Below are positions 16,901 through 64,000 of a DNA stretch of 64,000 nt, one piece after another. Source of the DNA: Deltaproteobacteria bacterium (GTDB lineage: Bacteria; Omnitrophota; Gorgyraeia; Gygaellales; Profunditerraquicolaceae). A model generated the notes under the pieces. That model was not told where the DNA came from. It made no database searches and worked only from the letters and a program-made list of their open reading frames with translations. Every line of letters begins with the position of its first letter. Within the stretch, counting starts at the first letter, position 1. The DNA lies in contig JBLMZF010000106.1 in NCBI GenBank assembly GCA_050258655.1, positions 2,669 through 66,668 of the forward strand. The letters are read 5' to 3'. The translations under genes and the position numbers were made by a program.

Positions 16901-17227
16901 TTACCTGACGCAGACCCAATCTCTGACCCTGCCCACCAGCGATGACCGCATACCTTTGACTTTCGAAAGCTCGGCGACATCCGAGAACCCGTTGTTGTCC
17001 TCGCGATATTGGATGATCCTGCGCGCCAGTCCGTCCCCGATACCCGGGAGGCTTTTGAGAGCCTCCGTATCCGCTTTGTTCAGGTCGATCCTTCCCAGGT
17101 CGCGGAGGAATTCGCGCCTTTCCAGCGGCGGGATCATTTTCGCCGCGCACTCGATCGCCGCCCCCGCGCCGCTTACCGCCAGCAAAAACACCACCACCTG
17201 CCTCTCCTGCTTCGTCAGCTCAAGCAT
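16901..17227 (-). CDS. comEA: competence protein ComEA (HhH DNA-binding)
   Basis: TM anchor plus C-terminal helix-hairpin-helix pair: IDLNKADTEALKSLPGIGDGLARRIIQYREDNNGFSDVAELSKVKGM. Start taken at MLELTKQ (17227). The longer ORF-track start would run through the REP hairpin. Confidence 0.8.
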   Translation of the reverse strand: MLELTKQERQVVVFLLAVSGAGAAIECAAKMIPPLERREFLRDLGRIDLNKADTEALKSLPGIGDGLARRIIQYREDNNGFSDVAELSKVKGMRSSLVGRVRDWVCVR

Positions 17228-17256
17228 ATCGCCTCCCTTCCCCACCGCTTCGCGGT

Positions 17257-17285
17257 GCGCTTGCGTAGGTTCCAACCTACGCAAG
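17257..17285. repeat. REP-like hairpin, left copy (gcg-cttgcgtaggtt-cc-aacctacgcaag)
   Basis: 12-bp perfect stem with a 2-nt loop. Exact reverse complement of the right copy at 17978-18006, so the two are in inverted orientation flanking the RAYT gene. Confidence 0.85.
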
Positions 17286-17287
17286 TA

Positions 17288-17908
17288 TTATGGTTCTATA
17301 ACTAGATGTTTAATGGTTGCGAGTTCTCGTTGATAATCTATGCGCGAATTGACAAAATCAGCATATTTTTCTGAAGCAATATCGATAAACTCTTTAAATT
17401 CGCAGATTCCCGATTCTTCTCCCAGATATTCTTTAAACGAAGAATACTTCCACTCTTCAGGAGCATTAACCAGATAGGCCGTTACCGGATTAAGGTGGAT
17501 ATATCTGGTTAGATGAAGTAAATACTCCTCATTTTCAATCAGTTTTCTCTTAAACCTTCCTTCCCAAAGAGGACCTTTGCGCTTGACTCTCGCATTGAAA
17601 TAATGCGTGTAACCATTTAACACTTTGTTCATATAAAGTGAGATGCCATTCTCTTGCAATTGCTTTAATATTAGATGAATGTGCGTGCTCATCAGACAAA
17701 AAGCTATTATCTGCACAAGAGCGGATCGCGGTTGGCGGATCGGAGAAGTAATTGAATTTCTCGTTTTTGCATTAGGATCTTTGTAGAATTGGAGGGCCTC
17801 AAGCATTCGAATGTAATCTCTTTCTGAATTAAAGATTACATAGTCAGAAATGCTTTTGCTGTAAACATGATAGATACTACCTTCGACTAAGGGATCGTTC
17901 GCCATCAC
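17288..17908 (-). CDS. REP-associated tyrosine transposase (RAYT; IS200/IS605-like TnpA, Y1 HUH family)
   Basis: 206 aa. YHVYSKSISDYVIFNS beta-strand region, HUH motif HIHLIL, and a C-terminal Tyr-containing helix (RYIHLNPVTAYLV). The gene and its flanks are visibly AT-richer than their surroundings. Flanked by inverted REPs. Confidence 0.8.
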   Translation of the reverse strand: MMANDPLVEGSIYHVYSKSISDYVIFNSERDYIRMLEALQFYKDPNAKTRNSITSPIRQPRSALVQIIAFCLMSTHIHLILKQLQENGISLYMNKVLNGYTHYFNARVKRKGPLWEGRFKRKLIENEEYLLHLTRYIHLNPVTAYLVNAPEEWKYSSFKEYLGEESGICEFKEFIDIASEKYADFVNSRIDYQRELATIKHLVIEP

Positions 17909-18021: not shown

Positions 18022-20439
18022 TTAGACGACGATGGTGACGAGTTTGCCGGGGATGACGATGAATTTCCTGATCTCTTTGCCGTCGAGCCAGGGCTTGGCT
18101 TTTTCGTCAGAAAGAACGGCGGCGCGGATCTCGGGCTCGCCCGCGGCCGCGGGGACTTCCACGCGCGAGCGGACTTTGCCGTTGATCTGGATCACGTAGG
18201 TGATAACGTTCTCGACCAGCATCGCCGGGTCATACTTCGGCCACGGCGCTTTGGCGATGTCGCCCTTATGGCAGGTCATCTCCCAGAGCTCCTCGCACAT
18301 GTGCGGCGTGATCGGCGAAAGCAGCTGAACGAGCGTCGATAAGATCTCGCGGTCAGCCCCGTACTGGTAGATGGCGTTGACGAACTCCATCATCGAGGCG
18401 ATGGCGGTGTTGAACTTGAAGTTCTCCAGGTCGTCGGTGACCTTCTTGACGGTCTTGTGCATCACCTTGAGCAGTGCCGGGTCGGACTTCTCTTTAAGGT
18501 TGTCCTGGATCCTCCAGACGCGGTTGAGGAACTTGAACGCGCCCTCGATACCGCGGTCATCCCACTCGAGCTCTGTCTCGGGCGGAGCGGCGAAGAGGAT
18601 GAACAGCCTCATGCTGTCGGCGCCGTATTTATCGATGATGGAATCGGGGTCGACGATGTTGCCCTTTGATTTAGACATGACCTCGCCGTCCTTGAGCACC
18701 ATGCCCTGCGTCAGCAGGCGCTTGAACGGCTCGTCGAAATCGACCATACCGAGGTCTTTGAAGAACTTGGTGAAGAAGCGCGAATAGAGAAGATGGAGGA
18801 TCGCGTGCTCGATGCCGCCGATATACTGATCGACCGGCATCCAGTACTTCGCTTCCTGCATGTCAAAAGGAGCCTGCGCGTCTTTCGGCGAACAATACCT
18901 GAGAAAATACCAGGAAGAGTCGAAGAACGTGGCCATGGTATCGGTCTCGCGCCGCGCCTTGCCGCCGCACTTCGGGCACTTCGTCTCGACGAATTCCTTG
19001 ACCTTGCCTAACGGGCTTCCGCCCTCTCCGGTGAAAGGCGCGTCCGCCGGCAGCTTGACCGGCAGTTCCTTGTACGGCACCGGCACGACCCCGCATTGAG
19101 GGCAGTAGACCATCGGGATGGGCGTGCCCCAGTATCTCTGACGGGAAATCAGCCAGTCGCGCAGGCGCCAATGGGTCTGGATCTTCCCGATCCCGGTCTT
19201 CTCCATCCACTCGGCGATCGCGGCCTTGGCCTTGACGTTGGGCATGCCGTCGAACTGCTTCGAATTCACCTCTTCGCCCTCGCCCTCGAACGCCTCGGTC
19301 ATCTCCGCCGCATCGAGCTTCGCGCCCTCAGGCTGGATGACCACGCGCATCGGCAGGCCGTGCTCTTTGGCGAACAGGAAATCACGCTGGTCATGGGTCG
19401 GGACGGCCATGATCGCCCCGGTCCCGTACTCCATCAGCACGTAATCGGCGGTCCAGATCGGCACCTCTTCCCCATTGACCGGGTTGACGGCATGCGCCCC
19501 GGTAAAAATACCTTCCTTCTTCACTCCTCCGGCACGGTCGACCTTGCTCTCTTCCGAGACGCGCTGGATGAAATCGGACACTTCCCTCTCGCGCGGCGTG
19601 CCTTTGACCAGCTCGGCGACAAGCGGATGCTCGGGAGCGAGAACGACATAGGTAGCTCCAAAGATAGTGTCCGGCCTGGTGGTAAATACCGGAATAACGC
19701 GGTCCGTACCCTTGAGCTTGAAATATATCTCCACACCCTGGCTCTTGCCGATCCAGTTGGTCTGCATCGCCACGACCCTCTCCGGCCACTGCGAAAGCTG
19801 GGAGAGATCATCCAGGAGGCGTTCCTTGTAATCAGTGATCTTCAGGTACCACTGCTCGAGCTCCTTCTGCTCGACCTGCGCGTGGCAGCGCCAGCAGCCG
19901 CCCTCGATGACCTCTTCATTGGCCAGCGTAGTCTGGCACGACGGGCACCAGTTGACCGACGATCCCTTCTTGTAGGCGAGACCGCGCTCGTACATCTTGA
20001 GGAATATCCACTGGTTCCAGGCGTAATAATCGGCGTCGCAGGTCGACACCTCGCGGTCCCAGTCGTAGGAGAAACCCATCTTCCTGAGCTCGACCTCCAT
20101 GTCGCGGATGCATTTATGTGTCCAGGCGTCAGGCTTGGTCTTGTTCTTGATCGCGGCGTTCTCGGCGGGCTGGCCGAACGCGTCGAAGCCCATCGGGTGC
20201 AAGACCTCGAAACCGCGGTTCCATTTATAGCGGCTGTAGACGTCGCCGATGGTGTAGTTGCGCACATGGCCCATGTGGATCTTGCCCGACGGGTACGGGA
20301 ACATCTCCAGGCAGTAGAACTTAGGGCGGGGGCCCACACCGGCACCTCCACTTGTGCCGGGTGGGACGGCCCTGAACGTTCCAAATTTCTGCCAGTGCGC
20401 ACGCCACTTCTCTTCTATCCGTTTGAAATCGTATTCCAT
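18022..20439 (-). CDS. leuS: leucine--tRNA ligase
   Basis: 805 aa. HIGH-type motif ([15 protein letters not shown]) and KMSKS (VMSKSKGN). CP1 editing domain present. Confidence 0.97.
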
Positions 20440-35556: not shown

Positions 35557-36030
35557 CTATGCAGTCTTTTTCCGCCTGAAGCCAGCCATACCGAGGAGAC
35601 CGCTGCCCAGCAGCAGAAGTGTCGCGGGTTCGGGTATGGGACTGCTGATATCATTGAAGATCCAGTGCGGGTCAGTCCTCGGTCCGATGTCGGATGTCGT
35701 GAATATGAGCTGCTGGTCAGTGAACCAGAGGGACTCGGGCACATCCGTCGAGTATGTCTTCCAGTCCGGATACGTGCCGCCTGTCTCAGTCACCGTGCCG
35801 ATAAGCACCCCGTTCGCGGTCCTGACTGTCAGCATATCGCCGGCAGAGCCCGCGGGCGGATCCATCGCGTTGATCTCCTGGTAATTGAAATTCAGCGTTT
35901 TGCCGAGCTCCATGGACTTGGTGAAATCCTGCCGGGATGTCGTCCAGCCTTCCCAGGGAAGGGCCCAGGCTGCTTCCGTGCTCAGGACGACCGCCGTCGC
36001 GAGCAGAAGCAGTGAAACGAGTTTTTTCAT
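35557..36030 (-). CDS. PEP-CTERM sorting-signal secreted protein
   Basis: Signal peptide MKKLVSLLLLATAVVLSTEAAWA. C-terminus IPEPATLLLLGSGLLGMAGFRRKKTA is a PEP motif plus TM plus basic tail, the exosortase recognition tag. Confidence 0.75.
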   Translation of the reverse strand: MKKLVSLLLLATAVVLSTEAAWALPWEGWTTSRQDFTKSMELGKTLNFNYQEINAMDPPAGSAGDMLTVRTANGVLIGTVTETGGTYPDWKTYSTDVPESLWFTDQQLIFTTSDIGPRTDPHWIFNDISSPIPEPATLLLLGSGLLGMAGFRRKKTA

Positions 36031-36169
36031 TGCCCACCTCCTTTCATTTCATTAAAACAACTCTCCCGTTTATGTAAAAGCATTATCCGTACCAAAACAC
36101 GCTGAAGCGGCAGATGCGCCGCCGGAGGGCTGGGGAGACTCCGCTTGTCCTTATTTGTAATCATGATGT

Positions 36170-36206
36170 TGAAAAAAGAAGAGCGGCGGGATACCGCCGC
36201 TCTTAC
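36170..36206 (-). terminator. rho-independent terminator downstream of the DUF1328 gene
   Basis: Minus-strand stem agagcggcgg / ccgccgctct with a 5-nt loop, followed by cttcttttttc. Confidence 0.6.
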
Positions 36207-36229
36207 CGTTGGAAAAAGACGATGGGTCT

Positions 36230-36397
36230 TTAGATCTGCCGCGGCCTCCTGCCCATGATCAGGCTGACGATGAAAAGTATGAGGAAGATGAAGAACAGGA
36301 CTTTCGCGATGTCCATCGAGGTGCCCGCTATGTTCGTGAAGCCGAACAGGGCCGCGACGATAGAAACGATCAGGAAAATAATTGACCAGGTAAGCAT
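36230..36397 (-). CDS. small membrane protein, UPF0391/DUF1328 family
   Basis: 55 aa, [55 protein letters not shown]. Two-TM hairpin with the family-typical LFGFxxIAG…AKxLFF pattern. It is below the 60-aa cutoff of the ORF track. Confidence 0.65.
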
Positions 36398-36467
36398 ACA
36401 CGCTCCTTTCTTTATAAAAGTTTTGCTTTTCCCTCTTTATTTACTATACTCTCGAAGGGCAGCTCCC

Positions 36468-59098: not shown

Positions 59099-61039
59099 TT
59101 ACTCTTCCGCTTCGCCCGCGTGCTGCGCCTGGTACTTGGCGATGATCGGCTGCGCGATCTTGGCGGGCACCTGTTCGTAATGCGCGAAATGCATCGTGAA
59201 AGAACCCTTGCCCTGGGTCATCGAACGCAGGTCGCTGGCGTAGGTGAACATCTCGGAGAGCGGCACATGCGCCTTGACCACCTGCAGCTTGCCCTTGGCC
59301 TCCATGCCCATCGGCCTGCCGCGGCGCTGATTGAGGTCGCCGGATACCTGACCAAGGAATTCCTCGGTCACCAGGACGTCCACATCCATGATCGGCTCAA
59401 GCAGGACAGGGCCCGCGAGGGCGACCGCTTTCTTGAGCGCCAGAGAACCCGCGCGCTGAAATGCGGCATCCGAGGAATCGACGTCATGGTAAGAACCGTC
59501 GTAAAGGCTGACCTTGATGTCGACCATCGGGTAGCCCGCGAACACGCCGCGGGTCATCGTGTTGATGATGCCCTTCTCGACCGAGGGGATAAAGTTCCTC
59601 GGGATGGCTCCCCCGACGACATTGTCCTCGAACTCGAAGCCCTTGCCGTGCTCCAGGGGCCAGATCTCGATCCAGCAGTCGCCGTACTGCCCGCGGCCGC
59701 CGGACTGCCTCTTGTACTTGCCCTGGACCTTGATGCCGCCCTTCGAGATCGTCTCCTTATACGGGACCTTCGGGGTGCCCAGTTCGACGTCGACGTTGAA
59801 GCGCTTCTTGAGCCTGCCGATCATCACGTGCAGGTGCAGGTCGCCCAGGCCGGAGATGACCATCTCCTTGGTCTCGGGGTCGACCTTCTCGCGGAACGTC
59901 GGGTCCTCGGCGACAAGCTTCTGCAGCGCCTGGGTGATCTTCTCCTCGTCCTGCCGCGTCTTCGGCTTGACCGAAGCGGACATCATCGACTCGGGGAAGG
60001 CGATGGGCTTGAAGAGAGCCTTCGAGCCGGCCGCGCCGATCGTGTCGTTGGTCTTGGTCTCCTTGAGCTTCGGGATCGCGATGATATCGCCGCAGGAAGC
60101 GCCTTCCTGGACGCGCTGTTCCTTCCCCTGGAGGAGCATGATCTGGCCGAACCGCTCGTTCGTCTGCTGAGACACATTAAAGAACGACGTGTTCGTGGCA
60201 AGCCTGCCCGAAAGGACCTTGACCAGGCTCAACTGGCCCACATAGGGATCGAATATGCTTTTGAAGACGAAGCCGGTGAACGGCGAGGCGTCGGAAGCCG
60301 TCACTTCCCCCTGCCCCATCTGCATGTGGCAGAATTCGAGCGGAGAAGCGAGGTCATCCTTTACCGCCTTGAGCAGCTCGTCGATGCCTTTGTCCGCCGT
60401 CGCCGAACCGAACAGGATCGGGAACACCTTGCCCGCGTCGACCGCTTTCGGAAGGGCTTCCCTTATCTCTTCGGAAGTGAGCGTGCCTTCGGTAAGATAC
60501 TTCTCGGTGAGCTTGTCGTCGCTTTCGGCCACCGCCTCAGCCAGTTCGTCAAGGGAGCCGCTGGCGAGCACGACAGCGTTCTTGGAAAGGTTCTTCTTTA
60601 TGTCGGAGAGGACCTTTTCCCGGTCGAAGTCTTCCTTATCGATCTTGTTGACGAAGATGATCCGGGGCATCTTCGCCTCCTCGAGCAGTTCCCAGGCCTT
60701 TTCTGTCCCGATCTCGACACCCTGCCCCCCGTCGACGACGACGATCGCGTTGTCGGCGGCGCGGATCGAGGAAAGCACCTCGCCGTAGAAATCGGCGAAA
60801 CCGGGAGTGTCGACGATCTGGATGCGCGTGTGGTCATACTCGCAGAACATGAAGCTCGCGTTGATGGAAGACTTGCGCTCGACCTCGTCGAAATTGTAAT
60901 CGCTGACCGTATTCCCCTCTGCGGTGGTCCCCTTACGGGTGGTCGCACCGCATTTAAAAAGCATCGCTTCGCAAAGGCTTGTCTTGCCGACCTGGGCATG
61001 ACCGAGCAGGATAACGCTTCTTTTGTCCTTTACTTCCAT
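59099..61039 (-). CDS. elongation factor G-like GTPase (EF-G paralog)
   Basis: All five EF-G domains present. G1 GHAQVGKTS, G3 VDTPGFADF, G4 VNKIDKED. Domain IV loop region …HDVDSS…. Start at MEVKDKRSVILLG (61039). The ORF-track N-terminal extension was rejected. Confidence 0.85.
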   Translation of the reverse strand: MEVKDKRSVILLGHAQVGKTSLCEAMLFKCGATTRKGTTAEGNTVSDYNFDEVERKSSINASFMFCEYDHTRIQIVDTPGFADFYGEVLSSIRAADNAIVVVDGGQGVEIGTEKAWELLEEAKMPRIIFVNKIDKEDFDREKVLSDIKKNLSKNAVVLASGSLDELAEAVAESDDKLTEKYLTEGTLTSEEIREALPKAVDAGKVFPILFGSATADKGIDELLKAVKDDLASPLEFCHMQMGQGEVTASDASPFTGFVFKSIFDPYVGQLSLVKVLSGRLATNTSFFNVSQQTNERFGQIMLLQGKEQRVQEGASCGDIIAIPKLKETKTNDTIGAAGSKALFKPIAFPESMMSASVKPKTRQDEEKITQALQKLVAEDPTFREKVDPETKEMVISGLGDLHLHVMIGRLKKRFNVDVELGTPKVPYKETISKGGIKVQGKYKRQSGGRGQYGDCWIEIWPLEHGKGFEFEDNVVGGAIPRNFIPSVEKGIINTMTRGVFAGYPMVDIKVSLYDGSYHDVDSSDAAFQRAGSLALKKAVALAGPVLLEPIMDVDVLVTEEFLGQVSGDLNQRRGRPMGMEAKGKLQVVKAHVPLSEMFTYASDLRSMTQGKGSFTMHFAHYEQVPAKIAQPIIAKYQAQHAGEAEE

Positions 61040-61236
61040 CACGATCTCCTTTTGGTTTCCGTGGCGGTTTCCAAAGAAAAGATTGACGTCAGGCGAGGAA
61101 AGCTTTTTGTGGGATTGGTTCCAAAGGCAATTATAAAGAACGGAGCAAAGAAGCAATTTTAATTATACGACGGAAGGATATGTGCGGCAAGTGTTTTTCT
61201 GCCTGCTAAAACGACGGGAAGGGTCCCTGGAAGGGA

Positions 61237-64000
61237 TTACTGCAGGGCGGCGGTCTCGAGGCCCAGAACGACCTTCAGGGTCTCGATAATGTCTTTGGAA
61301 GAACGGGTGCCGTTCTCCTCTTCCAGCCTGAGGATATAGGCGATGCGGGTCCTGGCCCGGGCTATTGCGGCAGGGGCAGCGGGTACATGCTCACGGCAGT
61401 CGCCCAGGTAGCCCTTGACACTATCTTCGCTGGGCATCATCCCCGCGACAAGCATATTGTCGAACCGGAAGTCGACGCCGCCGGCGGCGTCCTCCCCTCC
61501 GTCCTTCGCGAGCTTCGGGCTCAATCTCGTGTAGTCCTGATGCACAACCGCGTAACCGCCTGCGGCTTCCATCTTCGCCAGGAACTTCTCCCACGGCATC
61601 TTGTAAAGCGCGACCAGGAGCCCGAAGCCGGGTCTCTGAGGGTCGATGGCCTGCTCGCCCGGGTCTTTACCGGTCGTCCGCTCGATATGCTTCCGGTACG
61701 CCTGCTGTCTAAACAGCATTGCCTTGGGGGTCGCCCGGGACTTGCCCGAATCACGCATCATCTCGACTAACTCCCGGCTGTCGGTCTTATTCACTACCTC
61801 CTTGAACTGCTCTTCTGGAATCGAATCTATGACCAGCGACCAGTCAGTCGGTTCATATATATGACCGTAGTCCAGAATGATCACTTTCTTCAGCATTCCC
61901 AGTTCCGGTTTATTCTGATAAGCCTGAGTGACATGGGCAAGTAACAGAGGATTATTATAGACTGCGTACTTGATGCTGCGGGCGAGCTGATATTCCGCAT
62001 CTGAGCCTATAGCGCTTATCCACGAGACGATAAGATCATCCAATTCAGAAAAGCCGATCCTAATGCTATTAGAGGATTCAAGCGAATCGGCTAAAGCTTC
62101 GGCAAGATCATCCTTAACAGGAATCTTGTTTGTCTCTTTTATGCCTGAAATAACCTGCCCGTACAGAGCAGGATTACCACTGATGGCATACTTCAGAATA
62201 TTGGTCGTTGTCAAACCATTAAAGGCATGGACAAGTATATCCATTTCTTCAGGAGTGACCTTAATGTGCAGGTATCCGTTGCTTGCATAACGAAGGAGAA
62301 CTTCGATAGCCTCTGTAAGCGCAGTTATAACAGCTTCGTTCCTGGTTTCTTTTAAAGCCGTGACCATCAATTTATACACTTCCTCGTTATTCTTGACGGC
62401 ATCGATCGCATTGATAAAGACCCACTGTAGATTTCCCCAGGCAAACTCGCCTTTCGCAGCGTCAAGCGCGGCAATAAGAGTATGCAGATCGTCGGAAGAC
62501 AACCTTAGATCATACTTTTTCCCGCGGGCGGCCTTGAAAGCGTCGATTAAGACTTCGGCCAGCACGTCACGGACACTGTCCTCTGTCGTTACTTTCAAAG
62601 CGGCGATGACCTGGCCGTACAATTCCGGGCTGTTAAGCAGCATGTTATTAATATCCTCTTTTAACTGCCGCGGAATCCCGTACCGAGATACCCGTCTGAG
62701 CGCTTCTAATTTTTCTTTTAATGACTGTTCTTCCCCACCGTCCTTAGCGGCCCACGCGCTCAATCTTGTAGGCTCCTTGTGCACGACTTCATATCCTCCC
62801 GAGGCCTCCATCTTCGCCAGAAACTTCTCCCAGGGCATTTTGTAGAGCGCGACAAGGAGGGAAAATCCTTCTTTCTTTGGATCGATGGGCTGTTCTCCGG
62901 GATCCTCGCCGCCAGCCCGCTTGATCGACTCCCTGTACGCGATCTGTTTCATGGCCATGGCCTTGCTTGTCACCTGGCCATTGTCTACGGCAAAGAACAT
63001 ATCCCTGTAACCATCTTCATCTCCCTTAATAAGGGCATGAAGAGCATCCGAGGGGATCGACGACAGGACGAGCGACCAGTCTGTCCGGCTGTTAATGCCA
63101 AGATATTCGTGCGGATAGAGGCCGTTTTGTCTGCATCTTTCAAATGCCGAGCCGAACAAAGGCTGCAAGCGGGGCCATTCACGTTTGCCCAAAGAGCTCC
63201 TTACAGCGGATACCAGGGTGAGATCATTCCACAAGGCTTCCTGGATACTCTCTTCGAAACGATCGATAGCCCATTTAGAATCCGTTACTCCTTGCGGTAT
63301 AGTAAAGAGCGCGTCAATGAGGGCGCCGAATTCCTCCTGGGCCAAAACGATCGGCCGCCCGTCTTCTCTGGAAAACTTCAGGGAAGTGACTAATGTCCTC
63401 GCGAACATCCCCCGCCAGGTAACGGTCCCGGCACCCTTGATCTCGGCAAAGAAACGTCCCATCATCTGCGGATTCTTCCTGAGCGCTCCCTCGACGCACA
63501 TTTCATAATCCCAGAGCTCTTCGTCATGCCTTTCGTAGGCGCTCCTCATAAGCGCGATATAGAAATCGAACTCTTCCGGCGTCCCCCTGAGGATCCGCGT
63601 GGCGCGGGACGTCCTCAACGCATAACCGAGAGCATACACAAGCGCGCGCGATTCTTCTTCTCCGGCGACCCGCAAGGCCGCGACGACCTGTTTATACAAG
63701 GCCGGGTTTACATGGAGAGTGTAGGTGATTTCCTGTTTAAGATGGTACTTTTCTTCTTTTGAAGAAGCCAGCTTGAGCGCCTCGATCTTCCCTGCGAGAT
63801 AAGACGTATTGTAGATATCCTTCTTCGACCTTCTCCCGCCGTCCTTCGCGATCTTCGGGCTCAGCCTTGTGTAATCAGCGTGTACCGCCGCGTATCCGCC
63901 ACAGGCTTCTATCTTCGCCAGGAACTTCTCCCACGGCATCTTGTAGAGCGCGACCAGGAGCGAGAAACCGGGTTTCTGCGGGTCGATAGGCTGCTCGCCG
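61237..64000 (-). CDS. giant modular repeat protein of unknown function (C-terminal >900 aa in window; ORF continues beyond window end)
   Basis: No stop reading 5' of 63939 to the window edge. Contains at least 3 to 4 tandem modules of about 400 aa, with near-identical junctions GFxLLVALYKMPWEKFLAKMEAxGGYxVVHxDYTRLSPKxAKDGGE and divergent cores. No signal peptide or TM seen in the part present. Unique C-terminal tail of about 90 aa. Confidence 0.7.
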   Translation of the reverse strand, partial: GEQPIDPQKPGFSLLVALYKMPWEKFLAKIEACGGYAAVHADYTRLSPKIAKDGGRRSKKDIYNTSYLAGKIEALKLASSKEEKYHLKQEITYTLHVNPALYKQVVAALRVAGEEESRALVYALGYALRTSRATRILRGTPEEFDFYIALMRSAYERHDEELWDYEMCVEGALRKNPQMMGRFFAEIKGAGTVTWRGMFARTLVTSLKFSREDGRPIVLAQEEFGALIDALFTIPQGVTDSKWAIDRFEESIQEALWNDLTLVSAVRSSLGKREWPRLQPLFGSAFERCRQNGLYPHEYLGINSRTDWSLVLSSIPSDALHALIKGDEDGYRDMFFAVDNGQVTSKAMAMKQIAYRESIKRAGGEDPGEQPIDPKKEGFSLLVALYKMPWEKFLAKMEASGGYEVVHKEPTRLSAWAAKDGGEEQSLKEKLEALRRVSRYGIPRQLKEDINNMLLNSPELYGQVIAALKVTTEDSVRDVLAEVLIDAFKAARGKKYDLRLSSDDLHTLIAALDAAKGEFAWGNLQWVFINAIDAVKNNEEVYKLMVTALKETRNEAVITALTEAIEVLLRYASNGYLHIKVTPEEMDILVHAFNGLTTTNILKYAISGNPALYGQVISGIKETNKIPVKDDLAEALADSLESSNSIRIGFSELDDLIVSWISAIGSDAEYQLARSIKYAVYNNPLLLAHVTQAYQNKPELGMLKKVIILDYGHIYEPTDWSLVIDSIPEEQFKEVVNKTDSRELVEMMRDSGKSRATPKAMLFRQQAYRKHIERTTGKDPGEQAIDPQRPGFGLLVALYKMPWEKFLAKMEAAGGYAVVHQDYTRLSPKLAKDGGEDAAGGVDFRFDNMLVAGMMPSEDSVKGYLGDCREHVPAAPAAIARARTRIAYILRLEEENGTRSSKDIIETLKVVLGLETAALQ
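61500..61700. repeat. conserved module-junction repeat copy (intragenic, about 1.2 kb period)
   Basis: cgccaggaacttctcccacggcatcttgtaaagcgcgaccaggagcccgaagccgggtctctgagggtcgatggcctgctcgcccgg at 61573 onward matches the copies near 62813 and 63916 at about 80-90 percent nucleotide identity. Confidence 0.8.
62740..62960. repeat. conserved module-junction repeat copy (intragenic)
   Basis: cgccagaaacttctcccagggcattttgtagagcgcgacaaggag… is homologous to the 61573 and 63916 copies. Confidence 0.8.
63830..64000. repeat. conserved module-junction repeat copy (intragenic, truncated by window end)
   Basis: cgccaggaacttctcccacggcatcttgtagagcgcgaccaggagcgagaaaccgggtttctgcgggtcgataggctgctcgcc is nearly identical to the copy at 61573. 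Confidence 0.8.

Follow-up and report, generated by a model that had tools for sequence, protein, structure and literature searches.

Compositional mosaicism within a large HEAT-repeat gene of a GC-rich lineage that appears to belong to Candidatus Omnitrophota

The stretch of DNA analysed here, hereafter the window, comprises 64,000 nucleotides (nt) of contig JBLMZF010000106.1 from a metagenome-assembled genome (MAG) labelled as a Deltaproteobacteria bacterium. The end of the window carries the 3' part of a large minus-strand open reading frame (ORF; 61237-64000, stop codon at 61237-61239), which encodes residues 260-1179 of the hypothetical protein P0001 (100% match). This protein is made of HEAT-repeat arrays alternating with a junction module of about 128 amino acids (aa), hereafter J. 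One of the arrays, array B (61864-62733, minus strand), lies between the junctions J2 and J3 and includes an AT-rich block that corresponds to the coding sequence of its units 2 to 4. The composition and the synonymous codon usage of this core fit those of Omnitrophota of about 45% GC and not those of its host, whose GC content is 59-60%. The feature is a compositional mosaic within a gene, a familiar kind of event, found here in a nearly orphan protein. The explanation that we favour, with somewhat better than even confidence, is that the block came in by recombination from a lower-GC relative belonging to Omnitrophota and has not ameliorated since.

A sequence-only reading of the window had reported an AT-rich core in the middle module of this protein, and computation bears this out. 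The GC content of positions 61801-62400 is 0.435 versus a mean of 0.590 over the 64 kb (standard deviation 0.0375, 600-bp windows), which is about 4.1 standard deviations low. In 100-bp bins, GC ranges from 0.42 to 0.46 over 61801-62400, from 0.50 to 0.53 over 62401-62900 and from 0.57 to 0.65 over 61201-61800. Equally low GC is seen at one further locus of the 64 kb, 17100-17900, which holds a Y1/IS200-like transposase ORF. A deviation of about four standard deviations, shared with a single other locus, indicates that the AT-rich core is real and not a chance fluctuation; a uniform GC or codon profile was not found. The 60-mer quoted by the same reading as an example of the core has a single occurrence, at 61873-61932 on the plus strand. 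The drop is visible both in synonymous sites and in amino-acid content and is strongest at the former. Thus, the GC content at third codon positions (GC3) is 0.40-0.50 in the core (50-codon windows) versus 0.72-0.82 in J1, J3 and the C-terminal tail, the credible genes of the window having a GC3 of 0.73-0.86. For array B as a whole, GC is 0.457 and GC3 0.50.

The deviation concerns all three codon positions. In the core of array B, the GC contents at first, second and third positions are 0.508, 0.326 and 0.471, versus 0.602, 0.423 and 0.792 for 27 host genes. The corresponding values are 0.512, 0.369 and 0.46 for the gene of P0006 and 0.498, 0.368 and 0.43 for the gene of P0005, two homologues from Candidatus Omnitrophota whose contigs have GC contents of 0.447 and 0.449. 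Synonymous choice was scored as a log-likelihood ratio given the amino acid, opposing the host to L002, the low-GC Omnitrophota locus that carries the gene of P0005. Host windows of 200 codons score +0.43 ± 0.11 (minimum 0.18) and L002 windows -0.60 ± 0.19 (maximum -0.26); the core of array B scores -0.36 and its unit 1 -0.46. Array A, located upstream of J2 in the gene, scores -0.08, with a C-terminal half near -0.4, while J2 reaches +0.08 and J3 together with the tail +0.25. The maximal segment fitting low-GC Omnitrophota codon usage over that of the host extends over 61768-63399 (minus strand) and attains 152 bits, whereas host genes reach at most 18.9 bits (27 genes, leave-one-out); the transposase-like ORF attains 141 bits. 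The amino-acid content is also shifted. The GARP minus FYMINK value of array B is -0.12, the lowest for any 200 aa within about 6,250 aa encoded by the four fragments of this gene family in the MAG. In comparison, the arrays of two other fragments, P0004 and P0002, which were compared by amino-acid content alone, show values of about -0.04 to +0.09, and the host mean is +0.05. GC, codon-position GC and synonymous codon usage, the compositional marks of horizontally acquired DNA, all deviate from those of the host, and the foreign origin initially proposed for the core is supported by its composition at the three codon positions, by its synonymous codons and by its amino-acid content.

Least-squares segmentation of GC3, together with the GC bins, delimits a lowest-GC3 block (GC3 of 0.44) at 61813-62358 on the minus strand, which starts in unit 2 of array B and reaches the first conserved motif of J3 (TDWSLVIDSIPEEQ). 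The strongest GC3 change is an abrupt step from 0.44 to 0.79 between codons 729 and 730 (61812/61813). This step falls within the TDWSL..SIP motif of J3, between TDWSLVIDSIPEEQ and the F that follows it, and such a breakpoint inside a conserved motif of J is compatible with homologous recombination. The second change, from about 0.6 to 0.44, occurs at 62358/62359. Since it sits inside unit 2 of array B, the low-GC3 block does not span the whole interval from J2 to J3; its 3' boundary is sharp and its 5' boundary graded. The extent first given for the core, 61850-62700, needs correction: the lowest block is 61813-62358, the composition of 62359-62733 is intermediate and sub-host codon usage reaches over the whole of 61768-63399.

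The sequence-only reading had also described GC-rich conserved junctions on both sides of the core and had proposed that a cassette was swapped between conserved recombination handles. The description suits J3 (61495-61863, minus strand; GC 0.58, GC3 0.75), which is host-like from codon 730 onward, but not entirely J2 (62734-63129, minus strand; YPHEYL..TDWSL..SIP...PIDP..MPWEKF..AKDGG), whose protein is conserved but whose composition is intermediate (GC 0.55, GC3 0.65). Likewise, where the three J copies all encode the same amino acid (40 codons), J2 has a GC3 of 0.60, J1 of 0.875 and J3 of 0.825. The synonymous divergence (dS) of J2 from J1 and from J3 is about 1.6, i.e., synonymously saturated, versus 0.54 between J1 and J3. 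The longest exact repeat between J copies of the window is 35 nt long and is shared by J1 and J3; none includes J2. Therefore, these data do not demonstrate a swap between recombination handles: the block begins within array B and not at J2, the presumed handle J2 has a reduced GC3 and is synonymously saturated relative to J1 and J3, part of array A is sub-host too, the window holds no second copy, and the collections searched contain no related genome.

A more elaborate version of this proposal would be programmed variation, array B being an expressed cassette fed by silent copies through J handles or the target of a diversity-generating retroelement. Conserved flanks around a divergent centre do recall the architecture of an expression site. 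However, a second copy or a template-like repeat of the core is absent from the 64-kb window (tblastn, blastn), and tandem or near-identical repeats were not found. Furthermore, resident silent cassettes would be expected at host composition and not at a GC3 of 0.44. No reverse-transcriptase domain was seen among the window ORFs scanned, which are a subset of all ORFs. Programmed variation is thus extremely improbable, and nothing here demonstrates an active switching mechanism.

Besides its composition, array B resembles the other arrays. It shares 23-33% identity with them and aligns in register with their unit of about 75 aa (AL.NNP.L...V...L......R..L..A...AL......L.L....D.L.), which is common to all arrays of P0001, P0002 and P0004. 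This indicates that array B is a diverged paralogue and not a different kind of sequence. An unrelated insert or embedded element was considered for the block and rejected, as no stop interrupts the minus-strand frame, the block keeps the register of the 75-aa unit and it shows neither an Rfam match nor a tandem repeat.

Several arguments lead us to favour a recombinational import for the block: all three codon positions are shifted and match those of homologues from genomes of 45% GC, and the shift is specific to array B and ends abruptly. The homology of the core to the other arrays is also what an import from a homologous gene requires. The segment would have come from the homologous giant gene of a lower-GC member of Omnitrophota by homologous recombination or gene conversion. 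One crossover would have occurred in the conserved TDWSL..SIP motif of J3, and the import would be recent enough for the segment to have kept a donor-like composition without drifting towards that of the host. The weaker deviation of unit 1 of array B, of J2 and of the second half of array A could correspond either to a longer, partly overwritten tract or to older imports. From these comparisons we infer the import as such, where it came from and that J served as the site of recombination.

The low GC of the block could also be the outcome of endogenous heterogeneity, a reading favoured by its graded 5' side. The arrays would be weakly constrained, fast-evolving or poorly expressed and would leave AT-biased mutation uncountered, whereas elsewhere GC3 would be held high by selection or GC-biased gene conversion, and the J modules would stay at, or be converted back to, host-like GC. 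It is true that sub-host codon usage is not confined to the core but extends over the 3' part of the gene as a whole (GC3 of 0.60-0.66 in array A and 0.65 in J2), with a gradient rather than two sharp edges. In the same way, J2 stands apart from J1 and J3, which are the closest pair (dS of 0.54, 35-nt exact match), as would fit conversion among J copies. Against this reading, codon positions 1 and 2 and the amino acids are also of low-GC type and match the homologues of 45% GC genomes, and the other arrays that the MAG encodes in this protein family are host-like in amino-acid content. GC3 also changes abruptly at the 3' edge, from 0.44 to 0.79, and a GC3 deficit of 0.3 across 180 codons is far beyond that of any of the 27 host genes. 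We therefore regard this endogenous explanation as unlikely.

The origin of the contig raises another question, since the block could have been created by the assembler. Reads from the homologous giant gene of a co-occurring, lower-GC relative would then have been threaded into the contig via conserved J sequence. The contig does belong to a MAG, in which at least four contigs carry pieces of the gene family, with breaks located at J modules or close to them. The pieces have ends in common: 31 aa, within a J module, for P0002 and P0003, and 23 aa for P0004 and P0001. This shows that the locus was difficult for the assembler. Nevertheless, a chimera requires two joins, and only one boundary is sharp. 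The longest exact repeat between J copies in the window is of 35 nt only and does not involve J2, and the long identical k-mers needed for a mis-join are improbable between a genome of 45% GC and one of 59%. Moreover, the reading frame and the repeat register are unbroken across both boundaries. An assembly chimera is thus very doubtful.

Several observations weigh against the import that we favour. A single genome carries the gene, the contig was assembled from a metagenome and, elsewhere in the assembly, this gene is in fragments. Neither a donor nor a close relative of array B occurs among 1.84 billion representative proteins, the GTDB species genomes, the JGI metagenome contigs and IMG/VR. 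Array B is no nearer to P0005 and P0006 than array A is, and it has no DNA similarity to the genes of these two proteins (blastn). The 5' boundary found by GC3 segmentation is graded and lies within array B rather than at a J module. Finally, no mobility genes were found adjoining the giant gene: its neighbours are housekeeping genes and the sole transposase-like gene of the window is 44 kb away.

A broader proposal is that HEAT arrays are exchanged between lineages of very different GC, with J as a portable joint, and that such inter-genomic shuffling makes giant genes grow and diversify. We consider this generalisation decidedly unlikely. If the import that we favour is right, large modular surface or scaffold proteins of Omnitrophota trade internal pieces across lineages that are 15 GC points apart, which would provide one concrete route for the diversification of these poorly understood long genes.

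Interspecies recombination is well known to yield mosaic genes, such as pbp2x and pbp2b of pneumococci or penA of Neisseria. As in these mosaics, the block found here lies in a native gene, has the composition or divergence of another lineage and is homologous to the part that it would have replaced; the frame is preserved and the breakpoints fall in conserved sequence. Unlike these cases, there is neither a known donor allele nor an unmodified recipient allele, and the block belongs to an internally repeated giant gene in which paralogous and orthologous exchanges are inseparable. A looser comparison can be made with Rhs/YD-repeat and other polymorphic-toxin loci, which combine a GC-rich conserved core with AT-rich variable tips that are usually read as horizontally acquired. 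In both cases, a single ORF joins a conserved, GC-rich part to a variable, AT-rich one, with a short conserved motif at the switch. However, YD repeats, a toxin/immunity module and orphan tips are all missing here, and the AT-rich part is internal instead of C-terminal and made of the same HEAT-type repeat as its neighbours.

The giant and long proteins of Omnitrophota offer a closer context. In the work on 'Archaeovorins' (West-Roberts et al. 2023, 10.1101/2023.11.21.568195), HEAT repeats are the commonest domain and AAA_5 is frequent; proteolytic processing by C39 or S8 domains is proposed there, with cleavage sites unknown. A catalogue of long proteins (Nielsen & Lui 2026, 10.64898/2026.06.07.730766) describes repeats that are diverged and do not result from recent tandem duplication, 80% of the clusters being singletons. 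The gene studied here shares with the proteins of these two sources an Omnitrophota host, a HEAT scaffold, AAA_5, diverged repeats, a near-unique sequence and fragmentation by assembly. It differs from them by its size, since both the demonstrated length (1,179 aa) and the inferred one (4,000-6,200 aa) are far below the thresholds used there, i.e., at least 30,000 aa (10.1101/2023.11.21.568195) and at least 10,000 aa (10.64898/2026.06.07.730766). In addition, none of the fragments shows a C39, S8 or SecA domain. Term searches of 10.1101/2023.11.21.568195 and 10.64898/2026.06.07.730766 yielded no account of intragenic compositional mosaicism, and neither the J module nor its motifs occur in the parts read.

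Besides array B, which comprises three full HEAT units and a terminal partial one, the part of the gene held by the window includes, on the minus strand, the C-terminal half of J1 (63835-63999; GEQPIDP...MPWEKF...AKDGG), with a host-like GC3 of 0.80, and array A (63130-63834), HEAT-like and made of two units of about 75 aa, the C-terminal half of which has codon usage of low-GC type. Downstream of J3, a C-terminal tail of 85 aa (61240-61494; GC 0.63, GC3 0.78, host-like) belongs to no detected family. The ORF is open to position 64000 without an in-frame stop and leaves the window at its end. No Rfam or tRNA-like feature occurs in 60500-64000.

Structure comparison shows that the arrays are alpha-solenoids of HEAT/ARM type, i.e., stacked antiparallel helix pairs. 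Sequence searches of Pfam, NCBIfam and the PDB assign neither the arrays nor J to a family with significance; neither P0001 nor the ORF of the window has a Pfam match above threshold (HEAT, HEAT_2 and HEAT_EZ included), and the repeat unit, used in a profile search of the PDB, returned nothing significant. The TOG-domain arrays and other HEAT/ARM alpha-solenoids that resemble the arrays share 7-12% sequence identity with them, a likeness of general fold without functional implication. Their fold and published work on giant proteins of Omnitrophota suggest that the arrays may act as protein-binding scaffolds. A single-sequence AlphaFold2 model of the 920 aa was discarded (pLDDT of 46).

P0001 corresponds to NCBI entry MGE5308783.1 (1179 aa; 'MAG: hypothetical protein ACM3OC_06855 [Deltaproteobacteria bacterium]'), encoded by a 67,494-nt contig. 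A word-indexed search of 5.8 billion proteins matched three proteins, all from the same MAG, and an exhaustive phmmer search of 1.84 billion representative proteins matched six (P0001 to P0006). Three of these are further fragments from this MAG: P0002 (1,003 aa), whose N-terminus resembles a signal peptide; P0003 (1,228 aa), which contains AAA_5; and P0004 (2,845 aa; MGE5309381.1, 'VWA domain-containing protein, partial'), which takes up the whole of its 8,537-nt contig and carries AAA and VWA domains as well as a HEFGH motif read from its sequence. The last 23 residues of P0004 are the first 23 of P0001, save for a V in place of the start M. Because of this overlap, P0004 and P0001 would probably belong to a single gene with a length of 4,000 aa or more. 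Similarly, the last 31 residues of P0002 are the start of P0003, the overlap lying inside a J module. The four fragments (one N-terminal, two internal and one C-terminal) may even represent a single gene of about 6,200 aa broken by the assembler. Its order would then be a signal peptide, an N-domain, HEAT arrays, J, an AAA_5 region and an AAA/HExxH/VWA region, followed by five successive sets of HEAT arrays plus J and by the tail.

The two remaining homologues come from Candidatus Omnitrophota. P0006 (959 aa) matches HEAT_EZ (42.9 bits) and HEAT_2 (32.5 bits). P0005 (2,098 aa; MFA5145627.1, L002 49-6345) strings together a HEAT array with a J-like module, MraZ, an Rce1-like CPBP protease, a nucleotidyltransferase and unannotated parts, which are separated by an SSP[VL] motif recurring at least eight times. 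This layout recalls a polyprotein whose linker or cleavage motifs are specific to the lineage. The nearest sequences in any of the collections searched are only 21-28% identical. No relatives were recovered by J or module patterns in the GTDB species genomes, the JGI metagenome contigs or IMG/VR.

The junction module follows the pattern YPHxYL..TDWSL..SIP....AM..KQ.AYR....G.DPGEQPIDP.KPGF.LLVALYKMPWEKFLAK.EA.GGY..VH...L....AKDGG. It occurs in three copies in P0001 and in at least six in this organism, and 46 columns are invariant across four copies. A profile built from nine copies matched one further protein, a 103-aa ENA fragment, so that J is known from three MAGs of Omnitrophota and this short fragment. 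The invariant AKDGG closes every J module, at 61495-61509, 62734-62748 and 63835-63849 on the minus strand and also in P0002, P0003 and P0004. KDGG is found as well ahead of the first HEAT array, after non-repeat domains, as GGAKDGG in P0004 and as AEKDGG in P0002. To judge from its sequence and position, the KDGG motif may serve as a cap or be a candidate site of double-glycine processing. Since J invariably ends in AKDGG and KDGG precedes the first array in two other fragments, AKDGG could also mark the double-glycine processing sites proposed for polyprotein-like giants. No C39 peptidase that would accompany it was seen in the fragments or among the 20 largest window ORFs scanned. J could be used for segmenting such proteins in structure prediction and for seeking processing sites.

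The taxonomic label of the MAG, 'Deltaproteobacteria', looks wrong, because the 80 best matches of its leucyl-tRNA synthetase (LeuRS; 18022-20439, minus strand) in GTDB species genomes, with 59-74% identity, are nearly all labelled Candidatus Omnitrophota, the phylum in which the host appears to fall. The loci of these 80 related LeuRS have a median GC of 0.44 (10th-90th percentile 0.39-0.51, maximum 0.578). With 0.59 for the window, higher than all 80 loci, the host is an unusually GC-rich lineage of a mostly low-GC phylum.

Downstream of the giant gene, the neighbouring genes encode EF-G, YchF, PurH, a Mur-ligase-family protein and MnmE. The gene of the EF-G family (59099-61156, minus strand) begins 80 bp downstream of the stop codon of the giant gene, and the spacer between them (61157-61236) is AT-rich and includes a TTGCCG...TATAAT-like promoter. 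EF-G and ribosomal genes are reported within hypervariable loci of Omnitrophota in the long-protein catalogue (Nielsen & Lui 2026, 10.64898/2026.06.07.730766).

Other parts of the window also look foreign. The ORF at 17288-17908 (minus strand) encodes 206 aa with a Pfam Y1_Tnp match (IS200-like transposase, E 1.1e-6), has a GC of 0.38 and a GC3 of 0.36 and is located between a small ComEA-like ORF and the LeuRS gene. This island shows that the GC-rich host takes up low-GC DNA. In addition, an ORF of 124 aa at 36027-36401 (minus strand), which adjoins the glycogen debranching enzyme gene and lacks a Pfam match, has a GC3 of 0.42 and low-GC-type codons (56 bits) and may be another small foreign gene.

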